From positions 4,975 through 68,974 of the IMG/VR virus record IMGVR_UViG_3300038829_000127: a DNA stretch of 64,000 nucleotides, one strand, 5' to 3'. The notes under the pieces are model-generated. The model saw only the letters and a list, made by a program, of their open reading frames with translations. It ran no database searches and was not told where the DNA came from. A program made the position numbers and the translations under genes. Source of the stretch: a virus. Below are positions 4,717 to 56,115 of the stretch, piece by piece; position 1 is the first letter of the stretch, and each line of letters opens with the position of its first letter.

Positions 4717-5690
4717 TGGTTCAGTCCAACAAAACCCCGAACCAGCTTCTGCATGACGCGGTAGTGCGTCACCAAGTTTTCTTGCTGCGTTCCGCAGGAG
4801 TGCTGCAAAGAAAAGTTGTTGAGGCACTACAAGAGTCCGAAGCCAGGATCAAGCTCGCCATCGTCGAGCACCCACGTAGAAATCGCCTTGAGCTGATGGC
4901 CCTTTTGGCGGCAGTCACCACCCTGCGCCGACAGGCATGGCGCAAGGTGTCAAGGGAATGGTTGGCTTCTCTGGCGGAGTTAACCGCCAGGGAACCCATG
5001 TTCCTGACCGACACCCTCAACGAAGTCGCCCCGATCGTTATACAGATAACTCCGCTCAAGAATACGGATACTATCGTTACTCAGACCGCCGTCATGGGCA
5101 AGACAGCCCAGGAGTGGTTTGACGACGCCGAGGCGTCTGATATCGACCGGATCGAGACGAGTATCCGCTGGAGTGACGAGAAGGAAGACAGCGACCGTGT
5201 CCTGTTAGCCTTGCTCTTTGGCATGGGCGGGTTGGCTACGCAGACCGAGCGTGGTTTGAGCACCATTACCGCCACGGCCCTGATGGGTCTGACCTCCGCG
5301 GTGGCCATGGATTTCTTCGCGCTCAATACGCAGTTGGCTATGCGCTGGCTATTCGTAGCGGTGCTGGATAATCGGACGACACCACTGTGCCGTTCCCTGT
5401 CAGGCAAGACGTACTTGATTGGGAAAGGTCCTATTCCCCCACTTCACTGGTACTGCCGTTCCAGGGCGGTGCCTTTCGTGAACCTGAAGAACTGGGGCGG
5501 GGTGCCTCGGTCACCCAGCTATGCTGAATGGTTGGGGGGCCAGTCGGTCCAGTTCCAGGACGAGATCCTGGGCCCCACTCGTGGCAGGCTATTCCGATCG
5601 GGCGGAGTCACACTGGCCCGGTTCGTGGACTACAACACCGGGAAACAGTTCACGCTGGAAGAGTTGGCGAAGAGAGAGGGCCAGAGTTAG
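4716..5690 (+). CDS. head morphogenesis protein (SPP1 gp7/Mu gpF-like)
   Basis: AVLDNRTTPLCRSLSG...PPLHWYCRS motif. Confidence 0.88.
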   Translation: MVQSNKTPNQLLHDAVVRHQVFLLRSAGVLQRKVVEALQESEARIKLAIVEHPRRNRLELMALLAAVTTLRRQAWRKVSREWLASLAELTAREPMFLTDTLNEVAPIVIQITPLKNTDTIVTQTAVMGKTAQEWFDDAEASDIDRIETSIRWSDEKEDSDRVLLALLFGMGGLATQTERGLSTITATALMGLTSAVAMDFFALNTQLAMRWLFVAVLDNRTTPLCRSLSGKTYLIGKGPIPPLHWYCRSRAVPFVNLKNWGGVPRSPSYAEWLGGQSVQFQDEILGPTRGRLFRSGGVTLARFVDYNTGKQFTLEELAKREGQS

Positions 5691-5762: not shown

Positions 5763-6578
5763 GTGGCAATCAAGCTGAGGTATGAAACTGAGGAAGAGGT
5801 TCCGGCCGGCTTCACCGAACTCTACGAAGAGAAGGAAGGTGCCTGGCTCCTGACCGGAGTCGAAGGTCTGAAGTCGGAAGACGACGTGAAGCGGCTGAAG
5901 GGTGCTTTGGACAAAGAGAAGTCCGACCACAAGCTGACCAAGGGGAAGCTGCACGCCTGGGGCGATCTGAAGCCCGAGGAGGTGCTGCCCAAACTGGACC
6001 AGTTTGATGAGATGGCTCTGGCGGCTGATGGGAAGATGGATGACACCAAGATTGACGCGCTGGTGGAGTCCCGGTTGAAGTCCAAACTGGCCCCGATCGA
6101 GCGGGAGCGGGACACCTGGAAAACGAAGACGGCCGAACTCGAAGCCACCGTGGGCAGCTTTCAGTCCCGCGAGCGGGACCGAAAGATTGAAGAGGCCGTC
6201 CGCAAAGCGGCCAAGGGGAAGTTGAACGAGAATGCCATCGAAGACGCCATGCTCTACGGCGCCCGGGTTCTCGAGGTGAACGAGGAAGGCAAGGTGGTAA
6301 CTCGTGACGGGGTGGGGGTTACCCCGGGCCTGGAGCCGGTGGACTGGTTGACGGACATCCTGCCCAACAAGCCGCACTGGGGGCTGCAGTCGGCGGGTGG
6401 CGGGGCAGCCGGGGCCAAGGGTGGAGGCTCCTTCAACGGGGACAACCCGTGGGCAGCCGACAACTGGAACATGACCCGGCAGGGCGAATTTCTCGAGAAG
6501 TACGGCGAGGAAAAGGCGGTCCTGGCGGCGAAGCAGGCAGGCACCACGCTGGGTGGGGCGAAGCCCGAAAAGAAATAG
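5763..6578 (+). CDS. capsid scaffolding protein
   Basis: charged coiled-coil protein before MCP; GGGA.G...NPW...WNMT.Q C-terminus. Confidence 0.8.
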   Translation: MAIKLRYETEEEVPAGFTELYEEKEGAWLLTGVEGLKSEDDVKRLKGALDKEKSDHKLTKGKLHAWGDLKPEEVLPKLDQFDEMALAADGKMDDTKIDALVESRLKSKLAPIERERDTWKTKTAELEATVGSFQSRERDRKIEEAVRKAAKGKLNENAIEDAMLYGARVLEVNEEGKVVTRDGVGVTPGLEPVDWLTDILPNKPHWGLQSAGGGAAGAKGGGSFNGDNPWAADNWNMTRQGEFLEKYGEEKAVLAAKQAGTTLGGAKPEKK

Positions 6579-43845: not shown

Positions 43846-44744
43846 TGTGCCTCCATGTGGTTAGTCTCAGAAACTGACAACTCGGTGGCCCGAGTTATCA
43901 GTGGCCGAAACCACCGTGCCGGGGTCAACCGCCGATCCCCGCGGGCCCACTTGGCCGCGTACATCGTGTAGTCATGGTAAAGGGCGAGGGCGCGTTCAGC
44001 GTCCTCGGCCTTTACAAAGGACATCTCCCTGCGGTCAGCCTCAACCATCAGCGAGTGCAATGCGGGAATGAATCTCCGCTGCATGGTGATGCCGTTGTGT
44101 GGGCTAAAGCCCAGCACCTCGGCAATCGGCACAGAGACATTCGCCCAGGTCATCCGGTCGATTGCCGTTTCCCCGACCACATCCAGCGCCATCTCGTAGC
44201 CCAACGGACAACAGCGTGCCCGATGTATCCCTGTGGCCATGCGCTTCTGCACGGCAGCATGGGCTGTCTCGACATAGCTCGTGTTCAGCACGTCCGGTTC
44301 ATTGTCGAAGATCCAGCAAGCAGCCAGCAGGCCGTCTATTGGGGCGGCATGCTCAGATACCCGGGTGCTGGCCGTTGGGCTGAACAGGCGGTTGGCCTTC
44401 CCACACATACGGAGCACCCGGGCCACGTACCTTGCCCACTTGTCGAAGTGGTACGGCTCAAGCAGCACGGGGCGCAGGTGGGTTAGGAGGCTGAGACGGT
44501 TCACCAGGCGGCAGAGGGTCACCGCACGGGCCATGTGTCGTCTCCCCCGAAGAGGGGAGACGACTTGCTCTCGGATCCACTTCGTTGTGGGATCCAGTTC
44601 CCTGCGGGTGTTCGGGAAGTGGAGGTGGTTGAGCACCGGATCCTTCGACCAGGGCCACTCCTGCCCGGCTATTCGCCGGTCACGAATGGCCTGACGCTCG
44701 GCAACGAGCCAGAACAATTTGTCCAGGTCAATCCCGATAGCCAT
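43842..44744 (-). CDS. diverged 5-hmdU DNA kinase (aGPT-Pplase1) family protein
   Basis: FWLVAERQAI..RR.AG..WPWS.DPVL...HF.NTRRELD.TT.W N-terminus; GYEMALD and WAN C-terminal remnants. Confidence 0.75.
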   Translation of the reverse strand: MAIGIDLDKLFWLVAERQAIRDRRIAGQEWPWSKDPVLNHLHFPNTRRELDPTTKWIREQVVSPLRGRRHMARAVTLCRLVNRLSLLTHLRPVLLEPYHFDKWARYVARVLRMCGKANRLFSPTASTRVSEHAAPIDGLLAACWIFDNEPDVLNTSYVETAHAAVQKRMATGIHRARCCPLGYEMALDVVGETAIDRMTWANVSVPIAEVLGFSPHNGITMQRRFIPALHSLMVEADRREMSFVKAEDAERALALYHDYTMYAAKWARGDRRLTPARWFRPLITRATELSVSETNHMEAQ

Positions 44745-45116: not shown

Positions 45117-45325
45117 TGGAGCCTCCGTTGAGCCTCGTATTGTTCCTTGCTGATCGGTTCGATTTGCAACGTCACCCGATCCACATCCCACCGAAACTTG
45201 TGGGCAGCCCACGCCTCGGCCCGGGAGCGGATCGAAGTGTCGCTTGCGCCCCAATCCACTGTTTCAGCCTGAGCAACACCACCAAGCCGCGCCGTAATCT
45301 TCACGTAGGGCATACCTTCCCCCAC
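45113..45325 (-). CDS. hypothetical protein
   Basis: ORF track. Confidence 0.5.
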   Translation of the reverse strand: MGEGMPYVKITARLGGVAQAETVDWGASDTSIRSRAEAWAAHKFRWDVDRVTLQIEPISKEQYEAQRRLQ

Positions 45326-46059
45326 TCCTGCATGTACGTTTCATGCAGGAACGCATTGATGGCGGCAAGATCCGGCTCATCACGCAGGTTGCTTGTTCCC
45401 ATGGCCCGCTGCAGCGCCTGCTCCTGAGCCTCGATCATCTGCACCACGCGATCAAAGGTGATCTCACCTCGGCGTACCTGCATGAGCACTTCACGTTCAG
45501 CCGGCCGCATGGGCAGGCTCATCCGCCCTTCACCCACGATCTCAAGCCCCTGGTAGCCCAGACGGAGCGCGTGCATGGCGTACTTAGTATCGTAGCCATA
45601 CTGCTCGACCAGCTCGGGCCGCTTCACGCGCTTCTGCCCACGAACGCCCAGCAGCCGTTGCTTCTGGGCCAGCAGATAGCCCAGGAAGGCGTTGCCCGCT
45701 TTCTTTGAAACGATGGCCTTTCGCATCTGACGGAGTGCGTTTCCCCGGGCTGTCAGCACTGAGCAGTCCTGTGGCGGGACAAACAGCGGCATGAGGATTG
45801 TAGGATTGCCACCAGCCGCCAACCGCATCCATTTGCGCAGACCGTAGATCGTCAGGTCCAGATCCCCCGGGCCAGAGCGCACTCCCTCGGGCTGTGTCCG
45901 CTCCACGATGTGCTCACGGTACTGGAGCCCGGTCACAGCTTCTTTGGGCTCGATCATAATGCCCATTTCGTCCCGGTCGTCGGTGCCTTCAAGGGCCAGA
46001 CCGTGTACGGTGGAACCCACCGTGCAGCGGATGATCAGTTTGGCATCATCAGACTTCAT
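45301..46059 (-). CDS. Pol-beta superfamily nucleotidyltransferase (RlaP/YcgL-like)
   Basis: GSTVHGL....DDRDEMG (GS..DxD); GNPTIL..LF; YDTKYAMHALRL. Confidence 0.85.
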   Translation of the reverse strand: MKSDDAKLIIRCTVGSTVHGLALEGTDDRDEMGIMIEPKEAVTGLQYREHIVERTQPEGVRSGPGDLDLTIYGLRKWMRLAAGGNPTILMPLFVPPQDCSVLTARGNALRQMRKAIVSKKAGNAFLGYLLAQKQRLLGVRGQKRVKRPELVEQYGYDTKYAMHALRLGYQGLEIVGEGRMSLPMRPAEREVLMQVRRGEITFDRVVQMIEAQEQALQRAMGTSNLRDEPDLAAINAFLHETYMQEWGKVCPT

Positions 46060-47550: not shown

Positions 47551-47753
47551 CGGCCCATCACCGCTTTTGCCAACAAGAAAAGGAACACCAGCGGAAATGC
47601 GACCAGCGCCAGCGCAACCCCACCCCAGAACGGCGACAGCACCCACCACCAGGACCAGTTGATGACGTGGGCCAGTTTCAGGCCGATGAAGAGGAGGCCG
47701 AGGAGGCTTAGGAAGCCTACTCCGTTGCTGGTTTGCCCGCTTTTGGTGGACAT
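47547..47753 (-). CDS. small membrane protein
   Basis: LFIGLKL.HVI.WSWWWVLSPFW, a motif common in phage membrane proteins. Confidence 0.75.
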   Translation of the reverse strand: MSTKSGQTSNGVGFLSLLGLLFIGLKLAHVINWSWWWVLSPFWGGVALALVAFPLVFLFLLAKAVMGR

Positions 47754-47775
47754 TAGAACTCCGTTCCTAAACCGA

Positions 47776-48262
47776 ACCCACCGCAGGATCCCAACCCCGC
47801 CCTGGAGCCTTGGCTGAGTCCTGCGTGTGGGTCAGTAGTGTCCGCTGCGACCGCAGGGAGTAGTGGACACTACCCCTTTCAGTCGCCCAAGTAGAGCAGA
47901 ACACCCCTCCCCCACCCCCGTACCGGCTGCGTCGTGTCCCGGTACGGGGGCACGGTAGGGTCGGGGTGTTCATTGTTTCAACCGGCCCAGCGGGGACGGT
48001 TGAAACAATCCTTGTCAAACGCTCCAGAGCCACCGAAGGCGGGCCGCGCTACCCCGGGCAGGGGGCATCACCCGTTATGCTTTGTGGCCCTGGAGCCTGT
48101 TGTCTCCGCAGGCCCAAAGGGACGGCGGAGACAACACAAGAACGAATGTTGGCCCGCGGCGATTCATGCCCACCGGATGGAATCGAACCATCTAGGGGAG
48201 CTACCCCAACCGCATCCACCGGCCGGCGAATAGGCACAAAGTTCGTCCGCCGCGGGCCAAAC
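47776..48262 (-). ncRNA. non-coding island of seven consecutive hairpins (candidate structured RNA or DNA cruciform array)
   Basis: stems at 47776-47832, 47835-47873, 47899-47971, 47972-48009, 48021-48096, 48098-48136, 48148-48262; no credible ORF. Confidence 0.6.
48148..48262 (-). ncRNA. tRNA-like cloverleaf enclosed in a 13-bp stem
   Basis: T arm GATGG-TTCGATT-CCATC, GGGG-TAGCT-CCCC arm, CCG-GTGGATG-CGG arm, closing TTGGCCCGCGGCG/CGCCGCGGGCCAA. Confidence 0.55.
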
Positions 48263-48270
48263 GTCTGACT

Positions 48271-49185
48271 TTAGAAAGGCGCCTCTTCCTCGGGCAGATC
48301 ACCCGACGCACCACCCGCCCCACCCGAGTCACCCTGCCCCGCCCCCGACAGATCCACCTTCACCAGCCCGCCCTTGATCTGGGCGATGAAATCCTTGGCC
48401 TGGGCCAGCAGCCCAGCTTCGGTGGCCGGAGAAATCAGCGAGGCCGCCCAGTTCTCCTTGAACGGCTGGATCAGCCAATTCTTAGAGATCTGGCCAACCT
48501 TGTTCTTGTGGTCGGTGGTCTTCAGCCGGGCCCGGTTGGCGAAGATCGGGGGACGGCCCTTCAGCAGCTCCATGGACGTGTTCCACTGGCGCCACGGGCC
48601 GATGCCTGTACTCTTGAAGGCAATCATGGCGGGACCAGCGATCTCGTTGCCCTCGTCGTTCAGGATGAAGGCGTAGAGGTACACGGTTTCCACCACTTCG
48701 ACTTCGACTTCGCCCTTGGCGTTCTTGACCAGGGGGAGGGCGCCTTTGGGCCGTCCACCGACCGCTTCCAGCAGCCGCAGGACGACTGGGTTATCACTCT
48801 CCATCGGCGGGTGATCCTCGGGGAACCCGCCGCCCTTGGCCCGGGGGATCCAGGGCACCCAGAGACGGTGCTTCATCACCGGCTGGATCACCACGCCCTT
48901 GTCGGCGGGCCACAGTTCGCCCGTGACCGTGTTGTAGAGCATCCCGATCTCGGCGCCCGGAACCTTCGTCTCACCCTTCACCTGCGGGGACAGATCCTGC
49001 AGGATGGTGAGGAACGGGATCATCTTGTCCCGGGTGTCGTTCGACTCGAAACCGGCGCCGCTGTCCTCGCCATAATCGTTGACCGCCGCAAGAGCGGTCG
49101 TGTTCGTTGTGGCCGGCAACTGCTCCTGTGCCACCTCTTCAGTCACAGGCTTCGCGCCCGGTGCGACTCGTGCCCTGCTCGCCAT
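48271..49185 (-). CDS. probable single-stranded DNA-binding protein
   Basis: GFE...D..IPFL.ILQ.LSPQV; Gly/acidic tail ending EEEAPF. Confidence 0.7.
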   Translation of the reverse strand: MASRARVAPGAKPVTEEVAQEQLPATTNTTALAAVNDYGEDSGAGFESNDTRDKMIPFLTILQDLSPQVKGETKVPGAEIGMLYNTVTGELWPADKGVVIQPVMKHRLWVPWIPRAKGGGFPEDHPPMESDNPVVLRLLEAVGGRPKGALPLVKNAKGEVEVEVVETVYLYAFILNDEGNEIAGPAMIAFKSTGIGPWRQWNTSMELLKGRPPIFANRARLKTTDHKNKVGQISKNWLIQPFKENWAASLISPATEAGLLAQAKDFIAQIKGGLVKVDLSGAGQGDSGGAGGASGDLPEEEAPF

Positions 49186-49249
49186 TGTCCATTCCTCCGT
49201 CGTTGTTATTTGCCGCGGGCTGTTTAACGTCCCCCGGGGCTGTGGACGG

Positions 49250-49286
49250 TGTTGACTCCGGCGCCTGAAAGGTGGCGGAGTCAACA
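49250..49286. promoter_or_regulatory. inverted repeat with the same arms as 1158-1190
   Basis: TGTTGACTCC-N17-GGAGTCAACA upstream of the SSB gene. Confidence 0.5.
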
Positions 49287-49308
49287 AATAGCGCAGGGTG
49301 CCAGTGCG

Positions 49309-49524
49309 TTACGCTGGCGGCTCAGGTGCGACCTGATCGGTTCCTCTCCCGCAACCCTGCAAGATATAACTGTACCCTCTCGGATACATGACTTTCTGCA
49401 GTCGGTAGATGACATCCCCAGCAGCAGACGCCACTAGCTCCAACTCGGCTATTTCCAGATACCGGAAGGCTTCTTCGTCCGTATCCACCGTGATCGTCCC
49501 GTCAACCTTTACGTGGATGGCCAT
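49309..49524 (-). CDS. hypothetical protein
   Basis: ORF track. Confidence 0.45.
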   Translation of the reverse strand: MAIHVKVDGTITVDTDEEAFRYLEIAELELVASAAGDVIYRLQKVMYPRGYSYILQGCGRGTDQVAPEPPA

Positions 49525-49672
49525 TTGGCCCTGTAAGCCCGGAACACGGGCGGTACTACCCGATCGTGTTTCCGGTGCCAGAGGTAGCATCTCAGATCAC
49601 GCCAGGCAAGGATGCCCGCGTTGACGAGAGATATGCACAGGGCAGCACTGCCCAAGATCAGGGGCAGCAGTG

Positions 49673-49906
49673 TCATTCGTCCTCCGCCGTCCGCTCCCGC
49701 CAGTAAGCCATCACGGTCAGCAGAAAGGTATCCTGGTAGCGTGATAACCGCTTGCAGGTTTCATCGGCACAAGCCCTCAGTGCCTGATGGCCCAGCACAA
49801 CGGTGACGACAGCCAGTGGTATCCAGAACCACGTATGCCCCTGGATCTCCATGCCCACCAGGACAGCCCCAAAATACTGCAGGGACACCCATTGCCAGGC
49901 TTTCAT
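49673..49906 (-). CDS. small membrane protein
   Basis: two hydrophobic segments; ATGA coupling. Confidence 0.5.
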   Translation of the reverse strand: MKAWQWVSLQYFGAVLVGMEIQGHTWFWIPLAVVTVVLGHQALRACADETCKRLSRYQDTFLLTVMAYWRERTAEDE

Positions 49907-53133: not shown

Positions 53134-54360
53134 TCAGTCCTTGTACGGATCTTCCACATCGTCACCCGCCATCGCAACTCCGATCGGCGTCAACGTATGC
53201 AGAACCTTGATGGTGTCACCGTGGGCCTCGAGCACTTCCGGCAGCCGCTTGTAGCAGTGCGGCGACTCATCCACACCGGCTCCGCGCAGCTCCACATTCA
53301 TGGGCCGGATCCAGTTGTCCATCATCTCACGGGTCACGGCGCCACCGGTCTGCGACACAACGACTCGGCGGCCCTCGGCATTGCGCCCGAACTTCCGCTT
53401 CCCGGCCGCCTTGGTGCGGCTCATTACCCGACCGGCCCCGTGAACCGTAGAGTAGAAGGCTGTCTGGGAGTCGATGGACTCCACGCCCTCAATGATGACG
53501 GACACGTCGCCCATGGATCCGCCCACGAACCCACGCTGCCCGGGAAAGGCAGGTGTGGCGCCCTTGCGGACGACCCAGACCATCTCCCCCAGATGCTCCT
53601 CCAGCCAGGCGAAGTTGTGGTGGTTGTGCACCCGATCCAAGACGGGAGCCCCGATCAGGCTGGCCACGCGGTCGCATACCCAATCACGACCGGCGTAGGC
53701 GTACTGACCGGCCAGGTCCATGCAAGTCAGGTAGTTCTGGCCCAGTTCACTGTTCACAGGCAAGAGCACCGGGTCCACGTCGATACCATCCTTGCCGCCA
53801 CCCGCCTCGATAAAGTAGGTAGCGATCTTGTGGCCCAGGCCACGGCTGCCGAAGTGGACGCCGCACCAGACACGTTCCTGCTCGTCCACGAACAGGTCCA
53901 CGTAATGGTTGCCGGAGCCAATGGTCCCGAGCTGGTTCTGCGCCATGCGCTTCAACGGGGCCGCAGCCCGCAGCTTCCAGGCCGGATGACCGTCAGCCTC
54001 AAAGAGCGGGTGCTCAACCGACTCGTTGTTGTTCAGGCCGACACCGAACGAAAGCGTCTTCCAGATATCGTCCATGATCGTCTTGATATTGGCCCGGACC
54101 TCGGCAGCCGAAACATCCAGCAGCACCGCACAATTGCCACAGGCGATGTCGAAGCCAACGCCGTTCGGGCTGATCTTGTCCTTGTAGACCAGCACGCCAC
54201 CCACCGGGGCGGCGTACCCCTGATGGTTGTCGGCCATCAGGGCACAAGCATCCGCCGTCTCGAAGCAGTGGAGGATCTGGCGTTCGGCACCTTCGTCGGG
54301 CACACCGAAGACCGGGATGCTGTCTATTCCGTCCTTCTGGAGCCAGGTGAGGCGGCTCAT
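53134..54360 (-). CDS. rtcB: RtcB RNA ligase
   Basis: MADNHQGY, GFDIACG, GSGNHY, HFGSRG, HNHHN, RKGAT, HGAGRVMSR, DESPHCYK. Confidence 0.96.
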   Translation of the reverse strand: MSRLTWLQKDGIDSIPVFGVPDEGAERQILHCFETADACALMADNHQGYAAPVGGVLVYKDKISPNGVGFDIACGNCAVLLDVSAAEVRANIKTIMDDIWKTLSFGVGLNNNESVEHPLFEADGHPAWKLRAAAPLKRMAQNQLGTIGSGNHYVDLFVDEQERVWCGVHFGSRGLGHKIATYFIEAGGGKDGIDVDPVLLPVNSELGQNYLTCMDLAGQYAYAGRDWVCDRVASLIGAPVLDRVHNHHNFAWLEEHLGEMVWVVRKGATPAFPGQRGFVGGSMGDVSVIIEGVESIDSQTAFYSTVHGAGRVMSRTKAAGKRKFGRNAEGRRVVVSQTGGAVTREMMDNWIRPMNVELRGAGVDESPHCYKRLPEVLEAHGDTIKVLHTLTPIGVAMAGDDVEDPYKD

Positions 54361-55757
54361 CGAGCCGCCTCACTCTCATTCTCTTCCAGCGCAATCCACT
54401 CCACCAACCGCTCCGACCAGCCTGAGATGCGCGACCAACCGTTGCTCAGTTCCAGCGCGGGCTTGTAGCCGGCGACGTTGACGATATAGCCCTTGGCCTG
54501 CCGCACCTTGATGCCCGAGTCGGCCGCCTGTTCGTCAGTGACCACAATCGTCCGAGCGGGCTCGGGCAGGGTTTCTGCCATCTTGGCCAGCGCCTGCCCC
54601 AGATAGGTGCCGCCGTTCGGCTGCGAGTTCCACAGCGCCTCGATCAGCGGCAGCCCACGGTAGGCCGGAGCCTCCACCAGCTTCGTGGAGAACGTGAAGA
54701 TCCGGCAGTCCTCGCAGATTTCCCGCAGGAGGATGGCCAGGGCACCAGCCGCCTGGTAGCGGCGGAGCGTGCTCTTGGCCGACAGCGCATCGGACATGGA
54801 GCCCGACACGTCCACCAGCAGGTACGTCATGCCCGGGAGCCTGGGCGCCTCCTCGACGGCCAACAGCATGGCCTGCGAGAGAGCATCGACCATGGACGGG
54901 GCGGCCAGCGCGGCGGAGACGAATCGGAAGGGGAGGGCTTTGGACTTCCGGGCACCGGCCAACAGGGCAGCGTTGATCAGCGCCCGATCCACACCCGCCC
55001 CCTCCATGTTCCGCAGATTCATCAGAAGGGCCATGTACCCGAGCTTGTTTTCCGTGAGCAGCCGGGTGAAGGCTTCCTTCTTGTCAGCGCCGCCCGACAG
55101 GGCCACTTCCCATGTGTCCGGGGTGGCCAGGGTGCCGTTGACGATCTTCTCGTAAAGCAGTTCCCGCTCGGTCGGCTCGTACGGCCGGACAGGGCTTTTC
55201 TTCCGATCGGCCCGCACCCAATCAAAGTTGGCCGGCTTGGCATGGCACACGAAGAGAGCGTCACGCAGCTTGACCGCACCGTCCCGGTTCCACTTGGCCA
55301 ACTCGTGCTCACTGAACTTGGCGAATGCCAAGCTCAGGCCCTTCTTCACCTGGGCAGACACCGGGCACTTGCCGTCCTTCCAGTAGATGGACAGGAACTC
55401 GGCCAGTTCATCGGCACGCTGGATCGTCTCGCGCAAAGTGCGGGAGACGATGCCCGGGTCAGCGGTGCGGCCCGGATGCCGGGCCAGTTGCCGCACCAGG
55501 AACAGCGAGACGTGCCGCAGTTTCATGGCAGTGCGTGTGCTCACAGCCAACTCCGCCAACTGCTGCGGAGTTACCTGCAAGCACAGTTCCTCGATCCGCG
55601 CTGCGATCTCGGAGCCCGATTCGTAGAACGTGTTCTCGAACAGCATGCAGGTGGACACGGCCCGGGTCAGTTCCTGGAGGGGCGTCTGGTGCCGATCGGC
55701 CCGGCCCCCTTCATGGGTGACAACGGGCGGGAGCTTGGTGCAGGTGTTGGTCTTCAT
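54357..55757 (-). CDS. rsr: Ro60 autoantigen homologue (TROVE + vWA)
   Basis: FENTFYES, RADELAEFL, LAKW, LRDAL...H.KP, ALLMNLRNM, LPFRF, VDVSGSM, GGT, VTDEQ; ATGA overlap with rtcB. Confidence 0.95.
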   Translation of the reverse strand: MKTNTCTKLPPVVTHEGGRADRHQTPLQELTRAVSTCMLFENTFYESGSEIAARIEELCLQVTPQQLAELAVSTRTAMKLRHVSLFLVRQLARHPGRTADPGIVSRTLRETIQRADELAEFLSIYWKDGKCPVSAQVKKGLSLAFAKFSEHELAKWNRDGAVKLRDALFVCHAKPANFDWVRADRKKSPVRPYEPTERELLYEKIVNGTLATPDTWEVALSGGADKKEAFTRLLTENKLGYMALLMNLRNMEGAGVDRALINAALLAGARKSKALPFRFVSAALAAPSMVDALSQAMLLAVEEAPRLPGMTYLLVDVSGSMSDALSAKSTLRRYQAAGALAILLREICEDCRIFTFSTKLVEAPAYRGLPLIEALWNSQPNGGTYLGQALAKMAETLPEPARTIVVTDEQAADSGIKVRQAKGYIVNVAGYKPALELSNGWSRISGWSERLVEWIALEENESEAAR

Positions 55758-55776
55758 GGGGTTCTCCGTTTCTAGG

Positions 55777-55814
55777 TTCACTCATTCGACTGCACCAGCA
55801 GGCGAATGAGTGAA
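55777..55814 (-). promoter_or_regulatory. leader hairpin before the rsr ribosome-binding site
   Basis: TTCACTCATTCG-CCTGCTGGTGCAGT-CGAATGAGTGAA. Confidence 0.6.
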
Positions 55815-55975: not shown

Positions 55976-55993
55976 GCCCACAAAGAGCGTACT

Positions 55994-56115
55994 CGGATCA
56001 GACGGTAAGGGAACAGACCGCCGCCTCTGCCAGTTGGGCTACCCTGCCGTCTATTGGCAGGAGCTGGACTCGAACCAGCACATGAACGGTTCCGAAGTAA
56101 CCCTAGCCTACGCCA
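55994..56115 (-). ncRNA. yrlA: YrlA-type Y RNA (permuted tRNA mimic), unit C
   Basis: shared scaffold plus T arm GCTGG-TTCGAGT-CCAGC, closed acceptor hairpin TCCTGCC-AATAGAC-GGCAGGG, D arm TAGCCCAACTGGCAGAGGC, in T-AS-D order; next to rsr. Confidence 0.85.

Follow-up and report, generated by a model that had tools for sequence, protein, structure and literature searches.

A tRNA-like element with an intact elbow and no usable anticodon arm in the 3' spacer of a phage gp34-like gene

What is the role of a tRNA-like element that carries neither a usable anticodon arm nor a CCA end in a phage genome that also encodes Ro60, RtcB and RlaP? The element (115 nt) is located at 48148-48262 on the minus strand of the window, the 64,000-nt stretch of DNA analysed here, which is part of a 70,303-bp virus contig. 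The sequence is present in groundwater metagenome runs. Contigs from the same study are identical across the element; they are not independent occurrences, and the lack of differences among them rules out an assembly slip. The element starts no more than 10 nt past the stop codon of the upstream gene, a Pam3 gp34-like, SSB-cluster gene of 304 aa (48271-49185, minus strand; PF23977, phrog_2402), and thus lies in its 3' spacer. This non-coding spacer of 517 nt runs from the gp34-like stop codon towards the genes for a RecD-like helicase and RlaP (45301-46059). RtcB (53134-54360, minus strand), Ro60 of the TROVE-vWA type (54357-55781, minus strand) and a Y-RNA array are found 5-8 kb upstream of the element on the same strand. 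The array, upstream of Ro60, contains a YrlA-like permuted tRNA mimic (55991-56104, minus strand) that scored 25.2 bits, below the gathering score of 69, and is not part of the element.

The anatomy of the element was analyzed from 5' to 3' on the minus strand. The terminal helix consists of 13 Watson-Crick pairs and one G-U pair (48247-48260 with 48149-48162) with pair probabilities of 0.65-1.0, and its 13 bp at 48149-48161/48248-48260 are a perfect inverted repeat that closes the element. Next come a 6-nt bulge in the 5' strand (48241-48246; GACGAA is read at 48247-48242), an 8-bp helix that lengthens the acceptor (48233-48240 with 48163-48170), a 4-nt bulge between this helix and the acceptor (48229-48232), and an acceptor-like helix in a 7-bp register with three G-U pairs (48224-48230 with 48169-48175). 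The remaining arms are a D arm of the short-connector type (48209-48223), a 4-bp G-C hairpin with a 5-nt loop in the position of the anticodon arm (48195-48207), and a canonical T arm of 5 bp with a 7-nt loop (48176-48192; G53, T54, T55, C56, A58 and C61), so that the arm order is acceptor, D, hairpin, T. The D arm has a CCG/CGG stem plus a G-U pair, and its loop (48213-48219, GTGGATG) contains G18-G19-A20. Spacing and sequence of the 4-bp hairpin also fit a class II variable arm. Every invariant nucleotide of the elbow is retained, whereas pairs of the acceptor have drifted to G-U, and the pairing of the 27-nt 3' strand is continuous. The head is mounted via the acceptor helix on a bulged rod of 14 + 8 bp, and the acceptor and T stems together form a branch of 12 bp. 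The original prediction had placed these arms and the closing stem on this strand, and all of them are present as it described. It had also drawn a 5-bp T stem together with a CCGG/CCGG acceptor-like helix. The T arm and the acceptor-like helix stand, but the two drawings cannot both hold, since both need C 48176. The branch should therefore be read as 7/5, with a connector of 1 nt, or as 8/4, without a connector, and the two registers differ by at most 1 kcal/mol. A complementarity of 7 pairs between the 6-nt bulge and the 3' flank, noticed by eye, was dismissed as sterically unlikely.

The claim that the element cannot decode was borne out. The segment between the D and T arms is only 17 nt long, compared with 24-26 nt in all 25 decoding-type relatives described below. 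Its 4-bp stem and 5-nt loop depart from the 5-bp stem and 7-nt loop of a canonical tRNA, and no 7-nt loop with U33 and a purine at position 37 is found. The acceptor 3' end (N73 and the next three positions) reads CATG, no CCA is encoded, and the trailer is paired in the predicted rod, which seals the acceptor. The T-arm bases and G18-G19 of the D loop, on the other hand, are those of a canonical tRNA. ARAGORN at default settings made no call on the element, where a pseudogene or no call had been expected. No Rfam family matched the element at its gathering score, RF00005 included. The best weak match was tRNA-Sec (24.5 bits against a gathering score of 47), in an alignment that deletes the D and anticodon arms.

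The structure is well beyond chance. The minimum free energy (MFE) of the element gave z = -4.1, and 0 of 200 shuffles were as good. Three strict T arms were found in the window (those of tRNA-Thr, the YrlA-like unit and the element), while 0.37 were expected. A tRNA-like descriptor, consisting of a 7-bp acceptor, a D stem with a GG loop and a 5-bp T arm, matched only tRNA-Thr and the element in the window and was found in 1 of 600 order-3 Markov windows, a figure that is optimistic because the descriptor was composed after the element had been seen. With the middle hairpin added, it was found in 0 of 600. When ViennaRNA was constrained to form the D arm, the hairpin and the T arm, the best fold, the cloverleaf, came out 1.0 kcal/mol higher in energy than the MFE. 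From the 5' end it shows a terminal helix of 14 bp and a helix of 8 bp, each followed by a bulge in the 5' strand (6 and 4 nt, respectively), and then a 5-bp acceptor, beyond which stand the D arm, the 4-bp hairpin and the T arm. The MFE fold itself is a rod in which the D loop is paired to the 3' strand of the T stem, and the T-arm pairs have an ensemble probability of about 4%. When the 63-nt core was folded in isolation, the cloverleaf was 6.7 kcal/mol above the MFE. The reduction of this gap to 1.0 kcal/mol within the rod suggests that the rod favours the tRNA-like register. It should be noted that the folding energy model leaves out tertiary contacts between the D loop and the T loop. Since the decoding-type relatives also showed cloverleaf-MFE gaps of 0-9.3 kcal/mol (mostly below 4), the predicted rod does not refute the cloverleaf. 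We concluded that the tRNA-like shape of 48148-48262 is real.

The 7-bp acceptor and the 5-bp T stem have the geometry of an RNase P substrate. The enzyme cuts at a distance of 12 bp from the elbow, a position that in the element, between 48231 and 48230, would fall inside the unpaired 4-nt bulge. It is thus conceivable that the element is an RNase P punctuation signal, like the precursors of mascRNA or tmRNA, in which a cut in the 4-nt bulge splits the gp34 message from the helicase genes; a mini-tRNA of 62-63 nt could be released and then receive a CCA end. The 3' spacer position, the run of genes on the same strand and the lack of a called intrinsic terminator in the island fit this scheme, as does the cleavage of Mycobacterium smegmatis YrlA by RNase P, which was attributed to its 7-bp acceptor (PMC4201824). 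The element, however, has no RCCA, both leader and trailer are paired, and the freed core would refold given its 6.7 kcal/mol penalty. We regard this scheme as fairly improbable. The mascRNA/menRNA units and phage P1 C4 RNA (PMC4919922) are comparable as small tRNA-like units in a longer transcript with a possible RNase P signal, but the acceptor ends of the element are locked in the predicted rod, and no antisense partner of it was found.

The tRNA frame was then searched for with patterns built from the features common to the element and one other phage gene (L142). Twenty-five viral genes were recovered, from which a model (R1) and an alignment (A2) were built. All have a CCG/CGG D stem after a 7-bp acceptor, with a connector of 0 nt in 22 genes and 1 nt in three, and a middle segment of 24-26 nt; GGA is present within the D loop in 22, and CCA is encoded in 18. 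Their anticodon loops are mostly those of arginine (ACG, TCT, CCT, CCG and TCG), with one Trp and one Val. The anticodon stems covary (87% paired, two-sided changes in 5 of 5 pairs), although these stems had not been selected for. A20 of the D loop is an arginine identity element. The members checked lie within phage tRNA arrays, yet fall under the Rfam tRNA cut-off. Examples are L447:12501-12570(-), L385:11004-11073(+), L233:2331-2473(+), L407:2243-2391(+) and L376:422-706(-), among others, and several of the at least 25 genes found often occur in one array. The parent class, whose connector resembles that of tRNA-Pyl, is unannotated in phages, and tRNA finders miss most of its genes. The same layout, with an acceptor-D connector of 0-1 nt and a small D loop, is known from tRNA-Pyl and type I mitochondrial tRNA-Ser(UCN) (PMC7609411), and in the latter the T loop is retained as well, along with G18 and G19. 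The anticodon stem of those tRNAs is elongated. They decode, as the 25 phage genes with this layout would, whereas the arm of the element is shortened and its ends are sealed. Some Pseudomonas-type prophage elements (L216, L220 and others) matched the pattern and were set aside as another family.

The element fits this frame in its 7-bp acceptor, 0-1-nt connector, CCG/CGG D stem with GGA and T arm, a fit that is partly circular. R1 ranked the element top in the genome (36.9 bits, E about 3e-7; the true tRNA-Thr scored 34.7), a score that is also partly circular because the training genes were found with patterns derived from the element. Moreover, ordinary tRNAs score about 28-42 bits and true members about 45-81, so that 36.9 bits lies in the ordinary range.

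The frame bears on another reading, in which the GTGGATG loop is an anticodon loop and the 4-bp hairpin is a variable arm, so that the element is a D-armless tRNA-Ser(GGA) or the 3' half of a class II tRNA of the attP type. ARAGORN does call Ser(GGA) at a lowered threshold, in the alignment to the Rfam tRNA-Sec model, at the weak score given above, the hairpin takes the place of a variable arm, and 3' halves of class II tRNAs look similar. The loop, however, would carry G32, U37 and G38, the score is far under the gathering value, and no tyrosine (PF00589) or serine (PF07508) recombinase domain was found in the genome. In addition, the same CCG-GTGGA-CGG arm precedes a separate, intact anticodon arm in the 25 genes and is therefore a D arm. 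This argument, which is not circular, settles the D-arm assignment in favour of the original prediction. The loop bases, the D-arm homology and the missing recombinase domain largely refute both the Ser(GGA) and the attP readings, which we find barely credible. A 12-bp branch that can be drawn as 8/4 and the weak tRNA-Sec score also recall allo-tRNAs, (8/4) tRNAs and tRNA-Sec (PMC5389517; RF01852), of which inactive allo-tRNA-like genes are reported to occur near toxin-antitoxin loci (PMC5389517). The element differs from these in having no anticodon arm plus long variable arm and no CCA.

Three further genes with this frame have no anticodon arm. L390, in a tRNA array, has a 20-nt middle with a GAAA-capped hairpin and a CCA; L378 (5545-5686, plus strand) has a 21-nt middle, and L142 (6805-6872, plus strand) a 23-nt middle. 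The 17-nt middle of the element is the shortest among them, and its flanking helix of 13 bp compares with at most 8 bp in other frame members. The L142 gene is preceded by a terminator-like hairpin after gp34 and followed directly by the start codon of a NUMOD4-HNH gene; about 100 nt downstream, within the HNH coding sequence, lies a complement to its middle arm (0 of 40 shuffles). In L378, a perfect complement of 13 nt to the middle hairpin is found about 70-90 nt upstream (0 of 40 shuffles).

A conserved chromosomal tRNA-like gene with the same frame and a TCGCA loop was also observed in Solirubrobacterales-type genomes, often immediately after a PHP/PolX-like gene (L257:155-226(-), L258:2924-2994(-), L346:2395-2465(+) and more than 30 other genomes). 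Those checked gave no Rfam match. Downstream are a -10-like hexamer, a small RNA and a terminator-like hairpin; the ends of the small RNA are complementary to the middle arm of the tRNA-like gene, in most cases perfectly over 9-17 nt. The locus looks like a tRNA-like/antisense pair.

If such complements near the arm in L142, L378 and the Solirubrobacterales genes reflect pairing, the element could likewise be a tRNA-framed antisense RNA in the manner of P1 C4 or P4 CI, whose arm in the anticodon position pairs with a target RNA. For the element itself, however, no partner beats shuffled sequences, either within 500 nt (15 of 40 and 7 of 40) or across 36-57 kb of the same strand. Its loop has only 5 nt, and the Rfam C4 RNA gave no match on it. 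An antisense role is thus very improbable.

Relatives of the locus were surveyed next. Searches for the 115-nt unit gave no homologue at the sequence level, so that covariation is not available for the rod or the small hairpin. Pattern matches to the small hairpin with the T arm were ordinary tRNA-Leu and tRNA-Sec genes and their 3' remnants, not homologues. A search for related loci with the single gp34 protein found nothing. The closest relative, L010, has a gp34 that is 85% identical and a spacer of 146 nt whose only counterpart to the region is that of the hairpin at 47899-47971. L010 has kept RtcB, RlaP and the Y array and does not have the element. Its Ro60 (5048-5599, plus strand) carries an in-frame deletion of residues about 45-324, nearly the whole TROVE ring. 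In a survey of gp34, 79 of 80 viral loci had no element-like gene. The exception is L142, whose gp34 shows 34% identity; about 55 nt beyond its stop codon is a tRNA-like gene that shares the D-arm motif and the acceptor 3' strand of the element. This one case in 80 suggests that a tRNA-like gene may be a shared habit of the gp34 3' spacer.

Unusual tRNA-related genes were seen in other contigs as well. L141, a gp34-carrying phage, has a tRNA with a greatly enlarged anticodon region (5769-5859, plus strand) just upstream of gp34, as well as a tmRNA gene at 1880-2188 on the minus strand. L244 (899-1004, minus strand) and L240 (near 3718, minus strand) encode an RNA of about 105 nt with tmRNA-like 5' and 3' ends and a CCA, and with no room for a tag frame. 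A CAGGCCAC-type motif is common to the L244 RNA, L142 and L240, and ARAGORN makes no call on the L244 RNA.

The rest of the spacer, at 47771-48136 on the minus strand, is a non-coding island of hairpins. BLASTN of the island against GenBank phages gave no match, and only the hairpin at 47899-47971 has a counterpart in L010 (10909-10979, plus strand), in which the stem is rewritten and the apical GACGCAG loop is conserved. Among viral contigs this loop gave chance matches only, with no stem extension and no further homologues. A similar three-arm layout had been proposed for the hairpin at 48021-48096. This was not supported: the hairpin has a 13-bp closing stem and no T loop, and its MFE and the near-optimal folds inspected are nested rods. 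Palindromic hairpins of 28-39 nt with similar ends (GTTG or GTCG ... CAAC or CGAC) are dispersed in the genome, at 480-515, 1158-1190, 44537-44564, 47972-48009, 48098-48136 and 49250-49286 of the window and once 740 nt before it. They could be operators, RNase III sites or repeat-like RNAs. A likeness of the short island hairpins to CRISPR repeats or attC, noticed by eye, was set aside: the only Rfam match had 19 bits against a gathering score of 36, and the attC orientation was wrong.

These observations bear on whether the element is simply a relic. A short-connector tRNA gene, probably for Arg, may have landed in a hairpin-rich spacer and lost its anticodon arm. The tRNA shape would then be irrelevant now, and the rod would be one more hairpin of the island that serves, at most, mRNA stability. 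The element was found once and is missing from its nearest relative, three acceptor pairs are G-U, the cloverleaf lies above the predicted minimum, and the genome does have dispersed strong intergenic hairpins. The missing homologue of the whole unit also leaves room for this explanation. The elbow invariants are intact, however, the replacement hairpin is perfectly paired, and flanks that are not of tRNA origin pair the entire 27-nt 3' strand, which is not what decay builds. In addition, the frame is common to other genes without an anticodon arm. We therefore consider a relic unlikely, while giving it more weight than any other alternative.

The presence of Ro60 raises the question of whether the element is a Y RNA. 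Both the element and YrlA (RF02553; PMC4201824; bioRxiv 10.1101/312249) are elbow mimics with D and T arms and with no anticodon loop or free CCA, carried on a stem formed by the two ends of the RNA itself, in a phage with Ro60 and RtcB. YrlA, however, is permuted, in the order T, closed acceptor, D, and is mounted via the anticodon stem, whereas the element follows the order of a tRNA and is mounted via the acceptor. The element also lacks the Y scaffold shared by the Y RNAs of this phage and 11 related phage Ro60 loci, and it is 6.1 kb from Ro60 on the same strand, while nearly all YrlA genes lie within 4 kb of Ro60 (PMC4201824). The related Ro60 loci (L530-L540) contain multiple permuted units of the YrlA type with the scaffold TGGCGTAG ... 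GTTACTTC, on which ARAGORN mostly makes no call.

Yrn1 of Deinococcus radiodurans (RF01053; PMC4201824) is also comparable. The element agrees with it in a non-permuted tRNA-like domain that has a short anticodon-like arm, a T arm and no variable arm, in its mounting on a terminal stem, and in a length inside 80-130 nt. A Y RNA of this type, bound by the phage Ro60, would also account for GNCGAA in a bulge of the 5' strand and for the shared strand, and L010, which has no element, has the deletion in Ro60, albeit as one case only. The bulge GACGAA agrees with the Rsr motif GNCGAAN0-1G in its first six letters and lacks the last G, and GNCGAA is common on the strand of the element (1.6 per kb). 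Neither RF01053 at E 10 nor any Y family matched at the locus. Unlike Yrn1, the element has a full D stem and is not adjacent to Ro60, and the phage scaffold is absent from it. No TROVE gene was found in five contigs with related anticodon-less genes, which are 19-54% complete. We judge a Yrn1-type Y RNA improbable. The element resembles YrlA and Yrn1 as an elbow mimic on a stem formed by its ends, but it differs from both in the features that define membership.

The original prediction had gone further and proposed a strategy of tRNA decoys, in which the element acts together with YrlA, RtcB and RlaP. We found no support for this, given the absent Y scaffold, the 6.1 kb to Ro60, and a relative that keeps the genes without the element. 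A tie of the element to RtcB or RlaP is unsupported, as they share the genome and the strand and nothing more. Moreover, anticodon nucleases are unlikely to be titrated by an RNA that lacks the anticodon loop, unless they dock on the elbow. The decoy idea therefore survives only in a narrowed form.

The explanation that we prefer, tentatively and with somewhat less than even confidence, is that the element is a non-decoding mimic of the tRNA elbow, derived from the short-connector phage tRNA frame with its Arg-type D arm, which binds elbow-reading proteins of the host. Three features are seen in the sequence and its predicted fold: the short-connector frame, the loss of CCA and of an anticodon arm that could decode, and the sealing of the acceptor into a bulged rod of 14 + 8 + 5 bp. 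The element would be co-transcribed in the 3' spacer of the gp34-like gene, since no sigma-70 promoter was called in 47600-49700 and no terminator in the hairpin island. The rod may fix the register of the acceptor, and the D loop (G18, G19) could dock on the T loop (U55, C56). The unit of 113-115 nt might persist as a nuclease-resistant RNA, either free or inside the transcript, and would present to host readers of the elbow or T arm a tRNA elbow without a chargeable end or an anticodon, as a decoy or a tether. It would then be an accessory module that was gained or lost recently, not a fixed part of the Ro60-RtcB unit. The descriptor null, the R1 rank, the intact elbow, the effect of the rod, the anticodon-less genes that share the frame and the precedent of YrlA, an elbow mimic without CCA or anticodon loop (bioRxiv 10.1101/312249), all point in the direction of this elbow mimic. 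Against it stand the single occurrence, the absence from L010 and 79 of 80 gp34 loci, the circularity of the score and the rod predicted by ViennaRNA.

A broader hypothesis, which we consider quite unlikely, can be built on this elbow mimic. The short-connector frame might serve as a chassis in phages and some Thermoleophilia, in which the anticodon arm is swapped for a cargo, which could be a genuine anticodon arm for Arg, a sealed mini-hairpin or an arm for antisense pairing. The element would then be a purpose-built, unchargeable elbow decoy, or a second type of partner of Ro60, that diverts host proteins that sense or cut tRNA in the course of infection.

If the element is a relic, it is an annotation curiosity only. 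In our literature search, which was incomplete, no paper was found on a phage Arg short-connector class, and no Rfam family or paper was found for the element, its parent class or phage tRNA-mimic decoys. Mimics that keep the tRNA elbow and give up decoding are already known in YrlA and Yrn1. A natural 115-nt mimic that is mounted via the acceptor, in a phage with YrlA, Ro60, RtcB and RlaP, offers a small, testable substrate for the question of which proteins read the elbow while the phage infects its host. The unannotated class of phage tRNAs and the apparent tRNA-like/antisense pair of Solirubrobacterales may outweigh the single element in importance.
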